DNA from: Candidatus Uhrbacteria bacterium
GTDB lineage: Bacteria; Patescibacteriota; Patescibacteriia; UBA9934; GWF2-40-263
Direction of reading: 5' to 3'
Assembly: GCA_014239775.1 (NCBI GenBank)
Contig: JAAZYG010000005.1
Location: forward strand, 6,746 to 70,745
DNA: 64,000 bases
Shown: positions 5,982 through 59,794 of the stretch, one piece after another
Position numbering within the stretch: position 1 is the first letter of the stretch
Layout of the letters: the number at the start of each line of letters is the position of its first letter
Made by a program: the position numbers and the translations under genes
Notes under the pieces: generated by a model
Database searches by the model: none
What the model saw: only the letters and a program-made list of their open reading frames with translations
Told to the model about the DNA's origin: nothing

Positions 5982-6057
5982 TGGAGCCGTCACGCGGATT
6001 CGAACCGCGGACCTCATCCTTACCATGGATGCGCTCTACCTACTGAGCTATGACGGC
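5982..6057 (-). tRNA. tRNA-Thr (anticodon GGU), CCA encoded
   Basis: Reverse complement GCCGTCATAGCTCAGTAGGTAGAGCGCATCCATGGTAAGGATGAGGTCCGCGGTTCGAATCCGCGTGACGGCTCCA. Anticodon loop is ATGGTAA. Confidence 0.9.
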
Positions 6058-6880: not shown

Positions 6881-7654
6881 TTACTCTTGTGCTTCAAGGA
6901 CTTCACTTGCAGCCTCAATCACATCCTTGAATTGATTAATTTTAACACTTGCACCACCAACCAAAACTCCATCAATACTTTTCTCTCTTAATAAAGCATA
7001 TGCATTATCACCATTTACACTACCTCCATACAAAACATTTAATTGATCTTCCTTTATACCAGGAAAGATATCTGACAAAACAGTTTTAATAAACTCATGC
7101 ACCTCTATAACCTGTGCAACATCTGCATTTTTACCAGTACCGATTGCCCAAATGGGTTCATATGCTATAAACAATTTAGCTGAAGATCGTAATCTAATCC
7201 CACCTAATGCACTGGCTATTTGATTTTTTATAATCTCCAAATAACCACCCTCCTCTCTATGTTCAACACTCTCACCAATACACACTATTGGGGTTAAATT
7301 ATTCTCTAAAGCCTTTTTTAATTTCCTATTAACAATTTCATCCGTTTCAGAAAACAAACCCCTTCTTTCTGAATGCCCAATTAATACATGTGTTACACCG
7401 ACCTCATCTAACATTCTTGAAGAAATCTCACCAGTAAATGCACCCTTATCTTCCCATGACATGTTTTGTGCACATAAAGAAACAGATGACCTTGCGATCA
7501 CTTTTCTAACTTCCGACAAAGCAATAAATGAAGGACAAATGATTAAATTAGGAACAACTTTCCTACCCCTCAATGTCAAAAGCGTACCACGAGCCAACGC
7601 AATACTTTCTCTAACTCCCACATTCATCTTCCAATTTCCTATAACTGTTTTCAT
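6881..7654 (-). CDS. tpiA: triosephosphate isomerase
   Basis: Motifs GNWKMN, IGHSERR and YEPIWAIGTGK. Confidence 0.95.
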   Translation of the reverse strand: MKTVIGNWKMNVGVRESIALARGTLLTLRGRKVVPNLIICPSFIALSEVRKVIARSSVSLCAQNMSWEDKGAFTGEISSRMLDEVGVTHVLIGHSERRGLFSETDEIVNRKLKKALENNLTPIVCIGESVEHREEGGYLEIIKNQIASALGGIRLRSSAKLFIAYEPIWAIGTGKNADVAQVIEVHEFIKTVLSDIFPGIKEDQLNVLYGGSVNGDNAYALLREKSIDGVLVGGASVKINQFKDVIEAASEVLEAQE

Positions 7655-11956: not shown

Positions 11957-12922
11957 TTAAGTTAATAAAATATTTTCAAGAATCAAATGTGTGTTTACAT
12001 TGCTTTTTGCAACAATGCGAGCACGTCTAATTTCTTGAAGTAGGTTATATAAATCAATTATTTTAAATTTATTTGTTAATTTGTTAATATCGTCTTTATT
12101 ATTTTTATAAACACACAAATCATTGCAACCAATCTTATTCAACAACACATCTCTTAACACAGACTCCCACCTATCAAGAACTTCATGTAATTTTTTATTT
12201 TTATCAGTCTCTTGCTTTGTAATAATTTCTGTAACAGATTTAAACTTACGCGCTACCGAAGATTGAAACAAATGAGATACAGAAGAAACAACTATATCTA
12301 AATTTGCACGAAAAGATCCGTCCTTAATATATGATATTGCTAAACCTGGTCTGCCAAATGCTAAATCTGAAAATAAATCTGCTTGTTTTTTTCCAATACC
12401 ACTTTTTATAAGAGAGCTACTAATAAGATCACTTGATACTGTATACAAATTAATAACCTGACAACGAGAAACTATTGTTGCAGGCAAATCACTTATTGAA
12501 GTTGCACGTAAAATTAATAATGCTTTTCCATTAGGTTCTTCTAAGGTTTTCAACAAAGCATTCGAAGCACTCACAGATAATTTATCAGCCTCCTTTATAA
12601 AACCTACTTTATAACTACTTGCAAGAGGACTCATTGCCATCTTTTTATTAAACTCACGTATCTGCTCTACTGATATGTTTTGCTTTAACTTATCTTTGTC
12701 AGAAACTGTAGGTAATCTTTTAACAATAGAAACATCTGGTAATGATTCTAGACGATTTTGTGTATTTAATACATTGCGAATCAATTGCGTAATAACAGTT
12801 GTTTTTCCAGTATTTTTAGGACCAACAAAAAGCATACTATGTGGTAACTGATCGTTTTGAACCAATCTTGTAATGATCTCTTGAGCTGTTTTGTGTCCAA
12901 TTATTCCTGAAAATACGCTCAT
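11957..12922 (-). CDS. holB: DNA polymerase III delta-prime subunit
   Basis: LPHSMLFVGPKNTGKTT P-loop-like block and IVSRCQ sensor motif. ATG at 12922 preferred over GTG at 12940. Confidence 0.8.
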   Translation of the reverse strand: MSVFSGIIGHKTAQEIITRLVQNDQLPHSMLFVGPKNTGKTTVITQLIRNVLNTQNRLESLPDVSIVKRLPTVSDKDKLKQNISVEQIREFNKKMAMSPLASSYKVGFIKEADKLSVSASNALLKTLEEPNGKALLILRATSISDLPATIVSRCQVINLYTVSSDLISSSLIKSGIGKKQADLFSDLAFGRPGLAISYIKDGSFRANLDIVVSSVSHLFQSSVARKFKSVTEIITKQETDKNKKLHEVLDRWESVLRDVLLNKIGCNDLCVYKNNKDDINKLTNKFKIIDLYNLLQEIRRARIVAKSNVNTHLILENILLT

Positions 12923-13038
12923 ACTAGCATAGTATATCACACTTTATAATCTAAAACATTCATTACTTCTTGGTTATAATACATATGTATATATTACGAT
13001 TCGATCTTATTTGTCATAAATAACCAACAATTCTAATC

Positions 13039-13072
13039 ATCTTTATTTAGCTGAACTTAGCTAAATAAAGAT
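13039..13072. promoter_or_regulatory. perfect 13-bp inverted repeat just upstream of the island promoter (operator candidate)
   Basis: ATCTTTATTTAGC (13039-13051), 8-nt spacer, GCTAAATAAAGAT (13060-13072). It ends 18 nt before the -35 hexamer. No flanking T-run, so it is not a terminator. Confidence 0.4.
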
Positions 13073-13090
13073 ATTTCTAAATTGTAGGTC

Positions 13091-13119
13091 TTGACAAAAC
13101 TGACAAAAACTGTTATTAT
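13091..13119 (+). promoter_or_regulatory. sigma70-like promoter candidate of the 13-15 kb island
   Basis: TTGACA (13091-13096), 17-nt spacer, TATTAT (13114-13119). Confidence 0.5.
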
Positions 13120-13599
13120 TGTCATGTTGATAATCGGCATGTAAATCATTTATTTGAAAATGCCATACAATTGAATACTGGGGAGAGACCAGTGCTATCT
13201 GTGATTGTACAGATGCTCAATCATATAAAATCGATTTTTGTATGTGTCTTTACCTTGATACATTCAACAATCGGTTTTTTATTAATTAAGATTACGGAGG
13301 AGAGAGTGTACCCGTCCCTTCAAATCCGAAAGGAAGAGATGGGCGGTGGATACCAAATGGAATAACTGGGTTTACTCACTTAATCCATACGCAAGGAATC
13401 CGTTATTCATACCAACTCTTGAGTAGGTCACTGAATTTTTTCCCTCCGTGTTCTGAGTTAATAAAACCAAAAAAACTCTATTTATCTACTGTAGATAAAT
13501 ACTTTAACAAGGCAAGCGAACCAATTGAGATGCTTTGAGCTCTTGGTGACCGCATTGATGTGCATATTGACACATCTAGTCTTTTTCTCAGAGCGCTCC

Positions 13600-13637
13600 C
13601 CCTGATGGATGGGTATTTATATACCCATCCATCAGGG
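13600..13637 (+). other. 17-bp perfect hairpin
   Basis: CCCTGATGGATGGGTAT, loop TTAT, ATACCCATCCATCAGGG. Preceded by the 8-nt palindrome GAGCGCTC (13591-13598). Confidence 0.8.
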
Positions 13638-13664
13638 CCATTATTAATTTAACACAACCCCTTG

Positions 13665-13707
13665 CCCGATCGTAATCTTATTTACAAATAAGACATCTAC
13701 GATCGGG
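13665..13707 (+). other. long composite hairpin
   Basis: Outer 10 bp CCCGATCGTA / TACGATCGGG enclosing inner TCTTATT / AATAAGA. Followed by TTTC. Confidence 0.75.
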
Positions 13708-13763
13708 TTTCTGTCATAATACGCAATTTATTTGTGTGTTATGAAGGAAATCACATAAAAATA

Positions 13764-13826
13764 ATCTGATCTGGAATGAAGTAAATTATCAACTACTTCC
13801 TTCCAGATCAGATCCCCATGGTGGGG
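13764..13826 (+). other. long hairpin plus adjacent short GC hairpin
   Basis: 13-bp perfect ATCTGATCTGGAA / TTCCAGATCAGAT with inner GAAGTA / TACTTC, then CCCCA-TGG-TGGGG (13814-13826). Confidence 0.75.
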
Positions 13827-13887
13827 CTTTGAAAAGGACAGCACTGTGCAAATAAGCACAACACCATCTCAGAAAAGGAGAATTTTA

Positions 13888-15123
13888 ATGCTGCAAAACA
13901 TTTTTGAACCCCCCACCCTCATGGGAATGCAATTTTGTATTCCTGAAAACGACTCGCGTCCGGGCCTGCCGGGCAAGATCGAGGTTCTAGGTCGCAAGGC
14001 CCAGAAGTACTTCACAGGAAAGATAAACTTCCAAGAAAGCCATTTCAACAAAGGTGTTGCCGTCAGTCTGTGCATTCAGGCTGGTCAGGACTGGACCAAG
14101 TTGGGAAGCATTTCTGCGCTGAAAAAGCGTGGTAATGAGCTCCGGCTGATCTCTGAAGCCAGCGTGATTGCTGCTTCTACTGGTCTTCCGGTTGAATGGC
14201 TCGTTAAAGGAACTGAGTCTGTCGAAGGACTGCGAATGATCAAAAAGGCGGTTGAACTCGCTCGAAAGGTCAATCGTAATCACATGTTCTGGAGCAGTGT
14301 AATGACTCCCAGTCAAGTGATTGACCAGGAAATGAACGTCCTTTTGGCTCTGGAAGATGCCCTTATCACCGCACTCAAGACTAACCCCAAGAGTGATGAT
14401 GAGAAGGAAGATCTCAAGCAGAGTACAACGACTGTTGATCTGCGTGACATGGATATGGAGGCTTTCATCGAAGGTCTAGTTCCTGTACCTTCAGAACTTC
14501 CGAAGTTGCCTAGTACCAGGTCTGAATCCGACACCAAAGTCAAGGCAAAAACCTGTACTGACAACAATTGTGTGATCGTGAAGCGGATTGAACTGCATGA
14601 ACCTGGAACCTTGGTGGTTATTAATAACGAACTTCGTTATGTTTGCTGCGGCAAGCATGGCAAATGCCGTTCTTTGATGACACCTGAGGTCGCAAGAGTG
14701 ACTGCAGATGAAAGTAGGCTTCGACGTCAGTACCGGATCCCTGCTTGGAAGCAGATTGTGACTGAAGACTTTCAGTCTGATCGCCACACGGTCTACTGTC
14801 CGAGTTGTTCAAAATTCATCCTCAAGGATGGGTCAAAGACACTCGCACAATGGATCACTTCTGCTGAAGAGACTGAGAGAGATCTTTCTCGAAATGGTAG
14901 GCAAATCGCACGTAGCTTGGGATACAACAATCCCTTGAACAACGACGCCTACCTTGAGCTGGCATTGGCAGAGCCAGGACTGCGTGCTAACGGAATCGTT
15001 GGCCCCAATAAGACCCGAAAAGGTCCAATGGGAATTCGCGCAGCCTTGGCAATCTCCAAGACCAACCCGAATCGTCGTAACGGCAAAAACCGTAGCAACA
15101 ATCGGAATGCTCAACGCTCCTAA
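13888..15123 (+). CDS. orphan 411-aa protein: unassigned N-domain, acidic linker, Cys-rich zinc-ribbon-like region, Arg/Asn/Lys-rich C-terminal tail
   Basis: RBS AAGGAG (13875-13880) sits 7 nt before ATG 13888 (the track starts at GTG 13846). Cysteine clusters CTDNNC ... CCGKHGKC ... CPSC. Tail KTRKGPMG...NPNRRNGKNRSNNRNAQRS. Counted rows are 47-55% G+C versus 32-37% in flanking genes. The many antisense ORFs are typical of GC-rich coding DNA. Confidence 0.7.
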   Translation: MLQNIFEPPTLMGMQFCIPENDSRPGLPGKIEVLGRKAQKYFTGKINFQESHFNKGVAVSLCIQAGQDWTKLGSISALKKRGNELRLISEASVIAASTGLPVEWLVKGTESVEGLRMIKKAVELARKVNRNHMFWSSVMTPSQVIDQEMNVLLALEDALITALKTNPKSDDEKEDLKQSTTTVDLRDMDMEAFIEGLVPVPSELPKLPSTRSESDTKVKAKTCTDNNCVIVKRIELHEPGTLVVINNELRYVCCGKHGKCRSLMTPEVARVTADESRLRRQYRIPAWKQIVTEDFQSDRHTVYCPSCSKFILKDGSKTLAQWITSAEETERDLSRNGRQIARSLGYNNPLNNDAYLELALAEPGLRANGIVGPNKTRKGPMGIRAALAISKTNPNRRNGKNRSNNRNAQRS

Positions 15124-15228
15124 AAAGAGCACTTGTTAATCAATAAAACGATTAACACTTGGGGAACGTAGAAACACTCTTTCTGCGTTCCCCACTCATT
15201 AAAGGTCATAAGACAACTTGTGCTCTTT
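15124..15228 (+). other. structured 3' element (three-way-junction-like) directly after the stop codon
   Basis: Closing helix AAAGAGCAC (15124-15132) / GTGCTCTTT (15220-15228) encloses hairpin GTTAATC / GATTAAC (15135-15157) and the 14-bp hairpin GGGGAACGTAGAAA / TTTCTGCGTTCCCC (15161-15193). Confidence 0.5.
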
Positions 15229-15259
15229 AATGGGTATAGAATTCTCTCCCCAAGAGACC

Positions 15260-15289
15260 AAAATAACATCCTAATAAGGATGTTATTTT
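15260..15289 (+). terminator. intrinsic terminator of the orphan-gene transcript
   Basis: Perfect 12-bp stem AAAATAACATCC / GGATGTTATTTT, loop TAATAA. Confidence 0.65.
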
Positions 15290-15297
15290 GATATAAA

Positions 15298-15323
15298 AAG
15301 AACCCGGAAAAAACCGAGTTCTT
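15298..15323 (+). other. second hairpin after the terminator
   Basis: AAGAACCCGG, A6 loop, CCGAGTTCTT (one mismatch). Confidence 0.5.
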
Positions 15324-15476
15324 CTACTGGCACGACAAACGCACCCTCTCTCTTCATATCTACTTATGTAGACAAAAAACATTAACACATACACAAACTT
15401 TGTCAAGTATCTTAAACAAAGACAATAAAGATAACTAATAATCTCTATAAAAAAAGGCTTTTTATGTTTAAATTAC

Positions 15477-15505
15477 TTGACAAATATCATATTTTTTGTT
15501 AATCT
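15477..15505 (+). promoter_or_regulatory. sigma70-like promoter candidate for the small ORF
   Basis: TTGACA (15477-15482), 17-nt spacer, TAATCT (15500-15505). Confidence 0.4.
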
Positions 15506-15609
15506 AATCTTACAATTCAATCATGTCTATAAAAATAGATATACTACAACTGACTAGAGTGTGTGTTATGTAAATACAAAACCTCACTCTTTAGTATAGA
15601 GGAGGCAAA

Positions 15610-15762
15610 ATGCCTGGAAAGATAGAGGGAAATAAAGCAAACACGCTTAAACAGACGTGTATTACTAGAACTGCACTAAACTTCTGTAATTTTCGTCAAA
15701 CTGACATAAGTCGTAATCCACGACGTTTTCAACCTTGTTACATTTGTCCAGGCGGTGGTTAG
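15610..15762 (+). CDS. 50-aa four-cysteine small protein (hypothetical)
   Basis: Strong RBS AGAGGAGG 6 nt before the ATG. Sequence MPGKIEGNKANTLKQTCITRTALNFCNFRQTDISRNPRRFQPCYICPGGG. It has its own promoter candidate and a terminator. Below the ORF-track cutoff. Confidence 0.5.
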   Translation: MPGKIEGNKANTLKQTCITRTALNFCNFRQTDISRNPRRFQPCYICPGGG

Positions 15763-15802
15763 CTACTTTAACCAAACCTGTCGACTAAAAGTCATCTTAT
15801 CT

Positions 15803-15828
15803 ACGGCCACTAACTCACGGCCGTTTTA
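15803..15828. terminator. hairpin terminator between convergent small ORF and trmB-like gene
   Basis: ACGGCC / GGCCGT stem, 10-nt loop, followed by TTTT. Confidence 0.55.
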
Positions 15829-15830
15829 TG

Positions 15831-16607
15831 TTACTCAAATTTTTGTTTCTTATAATTTTCAGCACCTCTCCATGCTAATTCAAACAAAGCTTTTACAGTA
15901 TCTGCAATTTCCTTACTGGTAATGACCACTGACAAAATAGCTGATTTATATGAAAATAAAAATATATGATTATCTCTCACAACAATACTTCCATGAATCG
16001 GAAACTCACTTGCAGGTATAATTCGTATCTCCCCTTTTCCCATGTGAGGTAATGATACATCTGATTCATCTTCAACAATTGCAAGAACCCTGTGTTCAGT
16101 ATCGCTAGTTCTTAAAGTTGCATGGTGAGCATCTCTGTCGTGCATTACTTCAATTGTATTTTGAACATCCTCAAAAGGAAATATTTCAAAAAATTCACCA
16201 TCTAATTTTTCAAACATTGAACGAACTGTCTTAATCCCTTCAATTCCTTCAAGATATCTGATTTGCGGCTTTGTACCTTCTGCATTAAAAAGAGCCATTA
16301 ACATTGGTAATGTTTTATCTAACTCTGCTCTTTTTTCTGCTATCGCCCTATTTTGAGTATCTAAAATTGCACCAAGTCTTTCTGGAGACTCAGCTGCATA
16401 AAAACGCTTCTTACCTTTTACAAAAGTTGACATAAGACCACGTCCTGACAAAGATTCTATCATGACGTAAGTAGTTGCTCTGTTTACTTTTGATTTATGT
16501 GATATGTCTTGAACAGGTGAAGGACCCAACTCTAAAGCCGCCAGGTACACTGACGCCTCTTTATCAGAGAGTCCTAAATGTTTTAATTCATTGATTAGCT
16601 CATCCAT
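15831..16607 (-). CDS. TrmB-family transcriptional regulator
   Basis: N-terminal winged HTH LGLSDKEASVYLAALELGPSPVQDISHKSKVNRATTYVMIESL. TrmB-like C-domain length. Confidence 0.75.
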   Translation of the reverse strand: MDELINELKHLGLSDKEASVYLAALELGPSPVQDISHKSKVNRATTYVMIESLSGRGLMSTFVKGKKRFYAAESPERLGAILDTQNRAIAEKRAELDKTLPMLMALFNAEGTKPQIRYLEGIEGIKTVRSMFEKLDGEFFEIFPFEDVQNTIEVMHDRDAHHATLRTSDTEHRVLAIVEDESDVSLPHMGKGEIRIIPASEFPIHGSIVVRDNHIFLFSYKSAILSVVITSKEIADTVKALFELAWRGAENYKKQKFE

Positions 16608-29285: not shown

Positions 29286-29471
29286 AGTATTTTGTATATT
29301 TATCGACCTTTAAATAAAAAACTGCCGATTACATACCGCAGTGTTCTAAGAAAACTTTTCAGAATCTCATTTACCTCGACAGGACTTATTTCATTAATGA
29401 AAACCTGTTGTCTACGGCGGATATGTTCATTACTAATAGCAATGTAGCATCTCCAATCTTTAGTTCAAAAA
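29286..29471 (-). promoter_or_regulatory. long 5' leader of the rplJ-rplL operon (possible L10-leader-type autoregulatory RNA)
   Basis: ~185 nt between the promoter candidate and the rplJ ATG. L10(L12)4-binding leaders are established in other bacteria, but the motif is not verified here. Confidence 0.3.
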
Positions 29472-58339: not shown

Positions 58340-59794
58340 TTAAACATCGTCAGCAATGTGAATATAATGATCTCTCAATACCTTTGCAATGCAAGCTGTA
58401 AGCTTTTTTGCATAAGGAATATGAAGAAATTCATTAGGCCCGTGTGCATTTGCACCTGGCCCTAACACACCAGTAATCACAAACTGTGATTGAGGGAACT
58501 TATCATGAAGCATTTTCATAAATGGAATTGTTCCACCTTCACCCATATACAAAGCTTTTTCTTCAAAAAAAGCCATTGAAGCACCCTGAATAGATGATTC
58601 GAGCCAAGAAGCAAGCGTTGGAGCATGCCACCCAGGCCTTGCAGTACCAGTAAAGGTCACTTTTGCATGAATGAGTTCATGGTTTTCAAGCATGAACTTC
58701 ACTTCCCTATATGCAACTTCTGGATCCAAAGTTGGTGGGATTCGAATAGACAACTTTAACTCTGTAAATGGTCTTAATACATTTCCAGCATCCTTAATTG
58801 CTGGAATACCACCAACACCAGTTACCGACATGGCCGGACCCCATGTTCTTGCAAGAACAAGATCCGTAAGTTCATCTGACTCGATGTCAGGTGAATTATG
58901 TGCCCATTGAAACCGCTCATACAAAGCATGTCCAATTGTCTGTGCTGCATCTTGTGCTTGCTCGCGACGCTCTTCAGGAATATCAACACACAAAAAATCA
59001 CTCATGTGTTTTTCAAATACACAACCATTTGTGCTTTCAATCCTATCCAATGCACTCCTAATGATTCGGAAGCTGGATTCAACAATGCCACTTGCATCAC
59101 CCGAATGAACACCTTCCTCGAGCACATCAACACGCAATGTACCTATAACCAAACCTCGCAATGAGCTTGTAAGCCACAACTGATCATAATTACCTGCCCC
59201 AGAATCAAGACAAATAACCAAATCTGGTTCGCCAATGCGATCAGACAAGTGATCAAGATAAAAAGGAAGGTCTGGACTACCAGACTCTTCACCTGTTTCA
59301 ATGAGTATAACGCAACGAGCATGCGATATGTTTTGTTTTTGAAGTGCCAAAACAGCTGTCAAACTTGCAAAAACAGAATAACCATCATCTGCCCCACCGC
59401 GTCCATATAACCGCTCATCACCTTTATCATCAACGATGATCTTTGGTGTCCACGGGCCAAGACCGCGCTCTGCGTCCCAACCAACCATTTCTGGTTGCTT
59501 GTCTAGATGTCCGTACATCAGCACGGTTGCATCAGAATCACCTGGAATCTCCAACAACAAAATAGGTGTACGACCATCAATGTCAATAACCTCAACACTA
59601 ACATGCTTGGGCGCATGCGCACGACACCAATTTTCTGCTAATTCTACAACCTTATGCACATGACCATTTGACCTCCATTGAGCATCAAAAGCCTTGCTTT
59701 TTGCTGGAATTGCAATATATTCCTTAAGTGTTTTTAAAATTTTCTCATCCCAGAATTTATTCACCCAATCTAATAACAATACAGTGTTCATCAC
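58340..59794 (-). CDS. M20-family metallopeptidase (dipeptidase / ArgE-DapE-CPG2 superfamily)
   Basis: MYGHLDKQP, GRGGADDGYS and ETGEESGS blocks. One counted row is 52% G+C, well above the backbone. Confidence 0.8.
   Translation of the reverse strand: MMNTVLLLDWVNKFWDEKILKTLKEYIAIPAKSKAFDAQWRSNGHVHKVVELAENWCRAHAPKHVSVEVIDIDGRTPILLLEIPGDSDATVLMYGHLDKQPEMVGWDAERGLGPWTPKIIVDDKGDERLYGRGGADDGYSVFASLTAVLALQKQNISHARCVILIETGEESGSPDLPFYLDHLSDRIGEPDLVICLDSGAGNYDQLWLTSSLRGLVIGTLRVDVLEEGVHSGDASGIVESSFRIIRSALDRIESTNGCVFEKHMSDFLCVDIPEERREQAQDAAQTIGHALYERFQWAHNSPDIESDELTDLVLARTWGPAMSVTGVGGIPAIKDAGNVLRPFTELKLSIRIPPTLDPEVAYREVKFMLENHELIHAKVTFTGTARPGWHAPTLASWLESSIQGASMAFFEEKALYMGEGGTIPFMKMLHDKFPQSQFVITGVLGPGANAHGPNEFLHIPYAKKLTACIAKVLRDHYIHIADDV

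Follow-up and report, generated by a model that had tools for sequence, protein, structure and literature searches.

The interval between holB and a gene for a TrmB-family regulator in Candidatus Uhrbacteria bacterium (assembly GCA_014239775.1, contig JAAZYG010000005.1, positions 6,746 to 70,745 of the forward strand; this 64-kb stretch is hereafter the window) contains a leader which, as judged from sequence comparison, is a real, conserved and highly folded RNA of a previously undescribed family. The leader comprises a promoter and ~760 nt without an open reading frame (ORF; window 13091-13887) and precedes an orphan gene encoding a protein of 411 amino acids (aa; 13888-15123, plus strand). 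At its heart is a core RNA of ~190 nt (13277-13466, plus strand), predicted to fold into a four-way junction with three hairpin arms on a stalk. The order holB, leader, orphan gene or genes and TrmB is syntenic in at least seven contigs of Candidatus Parcubacteria, members of the Candidate Phyla Radiation (CPR), and the predicted transcription unit, window 13091-15300, is specific to Candidatus Parcubacteria. An earlier reading of the DNA (the original prediction) had singled out this stretch as a hairpin-dense leader, reminiscent in architecture of loci in which an RNA works with the adjacent protein.

A conserved core RNA supported by covariation

Seven loci, from about five distinct lineages, were informative, including one (L014) from an organism named Candidatus Parcubacteria bacterium by NCBI. 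In blastn searches, window 13285-13458 aligns at 65-68% nucleotide identity to L009, L010 and L011/L012, where the adjacent orphan proteins are only ~25% identical; the HolB proteins of lineages sharing the conserved core nucleotides are 35-39% identical. An alignment of the core from the seven loci (A5), on which the consensus structure and the covariation counts are based, has 55 predicted pairs, 23 of them with compensatory changes, and 94.9% of the cells are paired. None of 500 shuffles reached the observed number of covarying pairs or the observed covariation score, and sliding the pairing partners by 1-3 columns left only 0-5 compensatory pairs. Homologous loci and covariation, on which the original prediction had staked its structured RNA, were both found.

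The stalk, P1, is formed by two 24-nt arms (13277-13300 with 13443-13466), 83% complementary in the window, which include the ACGGAGG/CCTCCGT pairing noticed earlier as the closure of a domain. P1 spans 22-24 bp in both the AT-rich and the GC-rich versions of the core, with covariation over its ~22 bp in the GC-rich loci. It carries the arms P2 (13312-13346), P3 (13348-13401) and P4 (13405-13436), all on the plus strand. The length of the core varies only at the helix tips, with extra hairpins in L010, L013 and L014, and many loop and junction nucleotides are invariant; the motifs CGGAGGAGAGAG and CCATACGCA are present in all loci with enough upstream sequence (the window, L001, L009, L010, L011/L012, L013 and L014). 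The folding z-score of the core is -3.8. A covariance model scores the window core at 186.6 bits on the plus strand versus 23.6 bits on the minus strand, and this asymmetry, together with an invariant G-U pair, fixes the core strand as plus. The same model finds the core in a single copy in the 64-kb window. There is one core per operon, whereas the 5'-untranslated region (UTR) module described below is repeated before each ORF. In comparison with L001, a 76%-identical relative, the promoter (97%) and the core (94%) stand well above the other leader segments (74-86%) and the third codon positions of the orphan ORF (68%).

In L010 (7133-7345), the 5' and 3' ends of the core occur a second time, on either side of a run of Ns (7173-7271); most likely this is a scaffolding artefact, less probably a tandem duplication.

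Comparison with known RNA families and RNA-protein systems

Rfam 15, which covers riboswitches, leaders, 6S RNA, signal recognition particle (SRP) RNA, RNase P, transfer-messenger RNA (tmRNA), OLE, HEARO, ROOL, GOLLD, raiA and ribozymes, gave no hit at gathering thresholds in 12900-15500 (best E = 0.52, to unrelated small RNA and microRNA models), nothing in the seven homologous loci and nothing at E <= 5 in the GC-rich L014 and L011. ARAGORN found nothing in the leader region. The earlier remark that no known RNA family is recognizable holds up at both gathering thresholds and relaxed E-values. An exact 24-mer, CGCAAGGAATCCGTTATTCATACC, was absent from viral, genome and metagenome scans, being a pattern too specific to the sublineage of the window, and scans of genome and metagenome contigs with protein patterns returned nothing. 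Degenerate core motifs picked 73 viral contigs, all of which the covariance model rejected. A literature search yielded no relevant description of an RNA motif of Parcubacteria/Patescibacteria or of GC-rich CPR genes.

Several classes of loci pair an RNA with a neighbouring protein. TIGR-Tas systems are defined by a tandem interspaced guide RNA array and a Nop-domain protein (PMC12045711); neither a repeat array nor a Nop domain or fold is present at our locus. OMEGA systems (IscB/TnpB) do not fit, the adjacent protein having no RuvC/HNH nuclease fold or catalytic D/E/H residues. Nor do IS110 elements, in which a DEDD/Ser recombinase and element ends accompany a bridge RNA/seekRNA with variable target and donor guides in its internal loops: here a recombinase domain is lacking, the locus is not mobile but syntenic, and viral and plasmid collections yielded no copy of it. 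Retrons and DRT systems have a reverse transcriptase gene next to their RNA, a domain that no ORF encodes either here or at the homologous loci, and PADLOC returned nothing. The antitoxin-like analogy raised in the original prediction is not supported: type III (ToxIN-like) toxin-antitoxin loci have an array of short tandem RNA repeats upstream of an endoribonuclease toxin, whereas 12900-15900 has no tandem repeats and no PADLOC match; the guide-like analogy fares no better, the leader RNA having no variable single-stranded guide segment. The locus does share with OLE RNA-oapA, HEARO/omega RNA-IscB and tracrRNA-Cas9 the succession of promoter, large structured RNA and protein gene, and the co-occurrence of RNA and protein. 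Unlike those loci, it has no Rfam match and no variable guide segment, and its orphan protein lacks nuclease and membrane domains as well as invariant acidic or histidine residues.

The 6S RNA of Escherichia coli, a rod with a central bubble, is transcribed with ygfA and matured by processing. Our ~190-nt RNA similarly lies upstream of, and is predicted to be transcribed with, a protein gene, and its maturation is likewise a prediction; unlike 6S RNA, however, the consensus is a four-way junction with three arms, there is no RF00013 hit at E <= 10 and the core lies behind an intrinsic terminator. As each defining feature tested is lacking, the locus does not belong to the OLE-oapA, HEARO-IscB or 6S-ygfA class.

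A broader version of this comparison is that the core is a divergent housekeeping RNA of the clade (6S-like, Y-like or another stable RNA) which shares its promoter region with fast-evolving genes. Such an RNA would be expected to be highly conserved and single-copy in the 64 kb, to sit among housekeeping genes, to have a processing-type stalk and to evolve slowly next to fast-evolving proteins, all of which is seen here. However, the four-way junction is unlike the 6S rod, SRP helix 8, the P4/conserved regions of RNase P and tmRNA, Rfam at relaxed thresholds and ARAGORN are empty here, and an intrinsic terminator ahead of such an RNA would be unusual. On balance, we consider a housekeeping RNA unlikely.

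Layout of the locus and folding of the leader

Neighbouring genes in the 64-kb window are packed 5-32 nt apart, and the unusual spacer noticed at the outset belongs to the exception, the 2.9-kb holB-TrmB interval, which holds one plus-strand ORF (13888-15123) between flanks of ~960 and ~700 nt that contain no credible gene. On the 5' side of the leader, holB encodes DNA polymerase III delta' on the minus strand, with its true ATG at 12922; the TrmB-family regulator gene (15831-16607, minus strand) bounds the other end of the interval. As first claimed, the leader has no ORF of its own before 13888: there is no conserved ORF in 13120-13887, and the ORFs that can be called mechanically do not exceed 64 aa. 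A hidden small gene was rejected because 1-nt indels in the alignment of the window with L001 shift the frame of these mechanical ORFs and because tblastn with the accessory ORFs of the relatives matches nothing in the window.

The predicted transcript 13127-13930 (804 nt) has a minimum free energy of -272.5 kcal/mol versus -179.6 +/- 7.8 kcal/mol for dinucleotide shuffles (z = -11.9). In 150-nt segments, the mean z of the leader is -4.6, whereas those of six neighbouring genes range from -0.3 to +0.1. Folding is also marked in the gap 3' of the orphan ORF (mean z = -3.5), the first stretch of which is 85% identical in L001; the hairpins there (15160-15194, 15194-15235 and 15259-15290, plus strand) probably mark the end of the transcript.

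Two independent assemblies of the same population (L003 and L004), 99.8% identical to the window, confirm the contiguity of the leader with holB and of the 3' part of the ORF with TrmB. Both end inside the orphan ORF (at 14007 and 14309), with 300 nt covered by neither, and these breaks may reflect strain-level heterogeneity.

A second conserved transcription unit lies between the orphan gene and TrmB (window 15476-15830, plus strand), with a counterpart at L010 10045-10470. It has a promoter-like CTTGACAAAT... site, a conserved GGTnGTTAGCTACT motif, a terminal hairpin followed by a T-run and a small ORF (15610-15762, 50 aa) with a good Shine-Dalgarno (SD) sequence, the C-terminal NPRxxQPxxxCPGG of which is common to a 42-aa ORF in L010 (12/24 identical, E = 9e-6). 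Elsewhere in the window, Rfam recognizes only the leader of ribosomal protein L10 (RF00557, 48.3 bits) and tRNA genes, three in number (Thr-TGT, Tyr-GTA and Thr-GGT); these RNAs lie at 29306-29435, 1746-1932 and 5982-6057, all on the minus strand.

Promoter and candidate attenuator

The promoter that opens the leader, TTGACA-17-(TG)TATTAT (13091-13119, plus strand), is of the sigma-70 type and is, as the original prediction had it, a good one: it has 11 of 12 matches and a TG extension and is the best site in the region, with a predicted start near 13126. The pattern GTCTTGACAAnnCTnACA...TGnTAT is kept in five loci, including L001, L010, L011 and L014. Approximately 20 nt upstream of the -35 hexamer is a perfect 14-bp palindrome, ATCTTTATTTAGCT/AGCTAAATAAAGAT (13039-13072; 100% complementary), and TTAGC-type palindromes occur at the matching place in L001, L010 and L014. 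This palindrome could be an operator between the divergent holB gene and the RNA promoter, perhaps for the neighbouring TrmB-like regulator.

Near the 5' end of the leader is a purine motif, UGGGGAGAGA (13179-13188, plus strand), found as UGGG(G)AGAGA(G) in 6/6 loci reaching that far. It is followed, after variable hairpins, by a predicted intrinsic terminator, T1 (13227-13285, plus strand), with an 18-bp stem, a U-run and the loop GUCUUUACC (13246-13254), to which the purine motif is complementary. Except for the purine motif, the region between the start and T1 varies in length and sequence, with T1 located ~100-160 nt downstream of the promoter and directly before the core. Hairpins of this type, with 17-24-bp stems and runs of U4-6, are present in 6/6 loci, between the promoter and the genes, as is characteristic of attenuators. 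Their stems differ in sequence and covary (for instance, AUCGAUU/AAUCGGU, GCUGGUUG/CAACCAGC and GCCGGUUG/CAACCGG). The loop of each has pyrimidines resembling UCUCUUUCC, with complementarity to the 5' purine run. Being invariant, the pairing between purine motif and loop is a putative one.

Taken together, T1 is a candidate attenuator ahead of the core. The leader resembles attenuator and riboswitch leaders in its succession of conserved promoter, strong intrinsic terminator and downstream genes. Part of the 5' arm of T1 also has possible alternative partners in several loci, namely short complementary segments in L010, L011, L013 and L014 and weak ones in the window, which might act as an antiterminator. 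It differs from them in having no known aptamer and in that the conserved domain comes after the terminator rather than before it.

Lineage-specific hairpins and a repeated 5'-UTR module

Between the core and the UTR module, the window has a series of hairpins (13479-13502, ~13515-13590, 13600-13637, 13665-13707 and ~13708-13751, plus strand), some of which had already drawn attention. The 17-bp hairpin at 13600-13637 is 100% complementary and has three compensatory double substitutions relative to L001, and that at 13665-13707 is part of the minimum-free-energy fold. These middle hairpins are 79-84% identical to L001, compared with 68% at third codon positions of the ORF. In L011 and L013 they are missing or replaced by other hairpins, and in L014 only ~30 nt occupy this place; the perfect hairpins of 13479-13755 are, on this comparison, specific to the sublineage of the window.

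The UTR module proper (13764-13887, plus strand) consists of a long hairpin (13764-13813; 20-nt arms, 95% complementary, at the place of a hairpin noted before), the sequence CCCCAUGGUGGGG (13814-13826), a small hairpin (13845-13860) and the SD sequence AAGGAG (13875-13880). The same order, namely, long hairpin, (G)AUCCCAnGGUGGGG(C), small covarying hairpin, GACUUC and SD, precedes 10 ORFs in the seven loci and is present twice, before two ORFs each, in L009, L011 and L013. The small hairpin appears as UGUGC/GCACA, GCGGUUG/CAACCGC, GGGGUCG/CGAUCCC and GCGGGC/GCCCGC.

The GGUGGGG of the module (13820-13826) pairs with CCCCRCC in codons 5-10 of the ORF; in the window, the partner is CCCCACC (13911-13917), within the 3' arm of a UTR-coding sequence (CDS) helix at 13901-13925 (plus strand). 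This helix encloses the SD and AUG, which would therefore lie in a closed loop. Of the ORFs with GGUGGGG upstream (at -62 to -91), 9/10 have CCCCRCC at +15 to +30, compared with 0/5 of those without it. The predicted duplex has an energy of -28.8 kcal/mol versus -16.9 +/- 2.8 kcal/mol for other CDS windows, is contained in the minimum-free-energy fold of the window transcript and is lengthened by complementary sequences that differ from locus to locus, that is, by covariation at the helix level. The CCCCA/TGGGG hairpin originally proposed at 13814-13826 does exist as a pair but is better explained by this long-range interaction; the local CCCCA/UGGGG hairpin is an alternative fold of one arm of the UTR-CDS helix.

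These observations bring up the possibility that the leader is purely cis-regulatory, with the core sensing a metabolite, an ion or a conserved protein to control downstream transcription, stability or translation and having no role in trans. A promoter, a terminator and a structured domain ahead of genes are what such a leader would look like; the core occurs once per operon, at its 5' end; its junction and loop nucleotides are conserved as in riboswitch aptamers, even though HolB has diverged to 35-39% identity; and translational gating is clearly present. By contrast, the 22-24 bp of P1 far exceed the 4-8-bp switching P1 of known riboswitches, T1 is upstream rather than downstream of the core, and the core is not followed by a terminator or an SD-sequestering platform, the start codon in the window being 420 nt away, with unrelated hairpins in between. 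Furthermore, relaxing the threshold to E = 5-10 brings up no riboswitch or leader family of Rfam. We regard an exclusively cis-acting leader as a serious but rather doubtful explanation.

An orphan protein with a zinc-ribbon-like domain

The protein encoded downstream of the leader is close to an orphan. A word-indexed search of 5.8 billion proteins returned only two homologues (94% and 76% identity), and profile searching, carried out exhaustively on 1.84 billion cluster representatives, added nine further clusters at 22-25% identity; there was no match in Pfam, PHROGs, PADLOC, NCBIfam, PDB or BFVD. An AlphaFold2 model built with a 12-sequence alignment (pLDDT 69) comprises a helical N-terminal domain (residues 20-165), an acidic disordered linker (166-235) and a C-terminal beta/alpha domain with Cys residues (236-345), followed by a basic, disordered tail. 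Based on its conserved Cys pattern, the Cys-rich C-terminal domain reads as zinc-ribbon-like. The invariant residues are G35, R36, G56, P239, G240, C253, G258, C260 and C304, with C307 nearly so. As none of these is an acid-base catalytic residue, a binding or structural role is more plausible for the protein than an enzymatic one. No nuclease, recombinase or reverse transcriptase domain or fold was detected in the protein, in agreement with the earlier statement that it has none of the traits of IscB, TnpB, IS110 or reverse transcriptases.

In the GC-rich relatives, the unit includes one or two further small basic ORFs with disordered tails (L011 3111-3587, L014 9043-9672, L010 9178-9735, L009 716-1156 and L013 764-1183). 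These accessory ORFs are themselves orphans, GC-rich and variable in position; they fall into two weakly related families, and mostly have their own copy of the UTR module. Searches of the window with these ORFs (tblastn) found none there. In L009, the core RNA is separated from the first UTR module by two short hydrophobic ORFs with SD sequences (237-365, 42 aa, and 378-494, 38 aa).

Vertical inheritance and a persistent compositional offset

The gene neighbourhood of the unit is stable. On the minus-strand side of the gap are the genes for TIM, peptidase M16, ProRS, RRF, a BNR protein and holB, and on the other side the plus-strand orphan gene is followed by minus-strand genes for TrmB, GT4, MreB and DUF4012. 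The full synteny is kept in L010, L011, L014 and L008, with holB-orphan gaps of 0.75-1.7 kb. From locus to locus, the orphan proteins show a pattern of pairwise identities congruent with that of HolB and of the BNR protein, L011 and L014 being closest in all three, although the orphan has diverged further (~25% identity versus 35-55% for the HolB and BNR neighbours). Given the conserved synteny and congruent divergence, the orphan gene is best viewed as old, vertically inherited and fast-evolving; it appears to be a vertically inherited resident of the locus rather than a recent insertion.

The orphan ORF also has the most deviant G+C content in the 64 kb (0.48-0.49 versus 0.341 +/- 0.036), as the original description of a GC-rich orphan gene implied; the second outlier of the window is a 484-aa ORF at 58340-59794 (minus strand, ~0.44). 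The offset recurs in hosts of 34-56% G+C. In every lineage (the window, L001, L008, L010, L011 and L014), the orphan and accessory ORFs exceed the neighbouring genes by 0.25-0.5 in G+C content at third codon positions (GC3): 0.51 versus 0.18-0.27 in the window, 0.79-0.83 versus 0.24-0.35 in L010, 0.91 versus 0.43-0.50 in L011 and 0.92-0.96 versus 0.66-0.69 in L014. The leaders have a G+C content close to the host level.

One alternative is that the unit was acquired horizontally or is mobile, as what is left of a prophage or integrative element or as cassettes inserted beside an RNA gene, with the hairpins serving as DNA recombination or replication sites. The GC3 of 0.51 against 0.18-0.27, the orphan status of the ORFs, the cassette-like variation of the small-ORF set, with a repeated element upstream of each, and the assembly breaks inside the ORF would all agree with this. 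However, the unit occupies the same position in all lineages, the orphan divergence is congruent with that of HolB and BNR, and a GC3 offset across hosts of 34-56% GC is not expected from one donor. No integrase or transposase and no direct or terminal inverted repeats above chance were found; tandem repeats are absent from 12900-15900, and neither blastn nor tblastn matched viral and plasmid collections, nor is there a homologue in IMG/VR. The structures themselves point to RNA rather than cruciform DNA, given the G-U pairs and the asymmetric covariance-model scores. A mobile island is accordingly very improbable, and recent horizontal transfer as the source of the G+C excess is rejected because of the congruent divergence matrices and the presence of the offset in every lineage.

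As inheritance looks vertical, a persistent local force is needed for the GC3 offset. The ORFs are somewhat more strongly folded than their dinucleotide shuffles: mean z is -1.75 in the window, -1.9 and -1.55 in L010, -1.3 in L001 and -0.8 and -1.0 in L014, versus -0.5 to +0.3 for host genes. Specific pairs inside the CDS show no excess conservation, with 36% kept in L001 versus 28-38% in slid controls, and a conserved RNA structure within the CDS is therefore unsupported. The offset could stem from selection for stability of the mRNA as a whole, from biased gene conversion at a hot spot of recombination or from selection on codons.

A tentative model of function

The reading that we tentatively prefer, at somewhat less than even chances, is that the core acts as a ribonucleoprotein with the co-expressed zinc-ribbon-like and basic proteins and that the composite leader combines an attenuator, an excised stable RNA and translational gating. 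The promoter would fire constitutively or under operator control, and T1 would stop most transcripts after ~160 nt unless its formation is prevented, its loop pairing either with the 5' purine run or with the core's own GGAGAGAG in the stalk. Read-through past T1 would be needed for both the core and the mRNA. The P1 stalk and the 17-20-bp hairpins might serve as processing or stabilizing sites for a double-strand-specific (RNase III-type) enzyme, and cutting there would free the stable four-way-junction RNA and separate the cistrons. The freed core would then join the zinc-ribbon-like and basic proteins, while the UTR-CDS helix would gate translation of each cistron, possibly autoregulated via the CCCAUGGUGGGG hairpin.

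Several considerations weigh against this model. Termination at T1, processing at the stalk and a discrete core RNA are all predictions, and the invariant pairing of the purine motif with the T1 loop is unproven. The core adjoins the orphan family in 7/7 loci with enough upstream sequence, a co-occurrence raised as a question in the original prediction, but this count is biased, the loci having been found through the protein. With a pLDDT of 69, the protein model is of no more than moderate confidence, and searches by fold could overlook a relative. The core is far more conserved (65-68% nucleotide identity) than the protein (~25% aa identity), a contrast that would suit a partner of slow evolution (for instance a metabolite, the ribosome or RNA polymerase) no less well than the orphan protein.

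The proposed processing has well-studied parallels. RNase III cuts the long helices of rRNA precursors and hairpins in the early mRNA of phage T7. As in rRNA precursors, sequences flanking a compact structured RNA form a near-perfect helix of 22-24 bp, P1 supplying the helix of ~20 bp or longer that is typical of RNase III precursors, and, as in T7 early mRNA, hairpins of 17-20 bp lie directly before each cistron of a polycistronic transcript; unlike rRNA precursors, the enclosed RNA is not an rRNA, and cleavage is here a prediction. By analogy, the leader seems to work like an attenuated, RNase III-processed operon leader with an embedded stable RNA.

The 5' leader of the single-stranded RNA phage MS2 is a cloverleaf closed by a long-distance interaction, and its translation is under long-range control. 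The MS2 leader shares with ours a cloverleaf-like form with a long closing helix containing SD-like GGAGG and CCUCC, long-range UTR-CDS pairing that gates initiation, and coding RNA that exceeds host genes in both G+C content and folding. Our locus differs from it in being chromosomal, in having no replicase and unrelated proteins, and in that specific CDS pairs are not conserved.

A bolder and, in our estimate, improbable variant of the ribonucleoprotein model is that the ~2.7-kb unit is an RNA-centred CPR system composed of the core and fast-evolving, non-enzymatic proteins, with mRNAs that are GC-rich at synonymous sites and over-folded because the transcript must be unusually stable, packaged or exported. 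If so, the transcript might, for example, be passed by these episymbionts to their host cell or persist during dormancy, and the constant GC3 offset would be a signature of selection on RNA, not of horizontal transfer.

Implications

CPR/Patescibacteria account for a large share of bacterial diversity, and, to our knowledge, almost nothing is known of their regulatory and structural RNAs. The present analysis provides coordinates, a covariance model and seven loci for a new RNA family supported by covariation, with an ~190-nt core and a modular leader, tied to an orphan protein family without detectable fold relatives. Beyond the features foreseen in the original prediction, it brings to light T1, the four-way junction, the lineage-specificity of the middle hairpins, the repeated UTR module and the vertical inheritance of the locus. 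The predictions made here are open to direct test with public metatranscriptomes and simple biochemistry. Amelioration theory does not predict that genes inherited vertically should be enriched in G+C at synonymous sites, here by 0.25-0.5 in GC3; the enrichment could reveal that the structure or stability of mRNA is under selection, or that a local process of biased conversion operates, in these bacteria.

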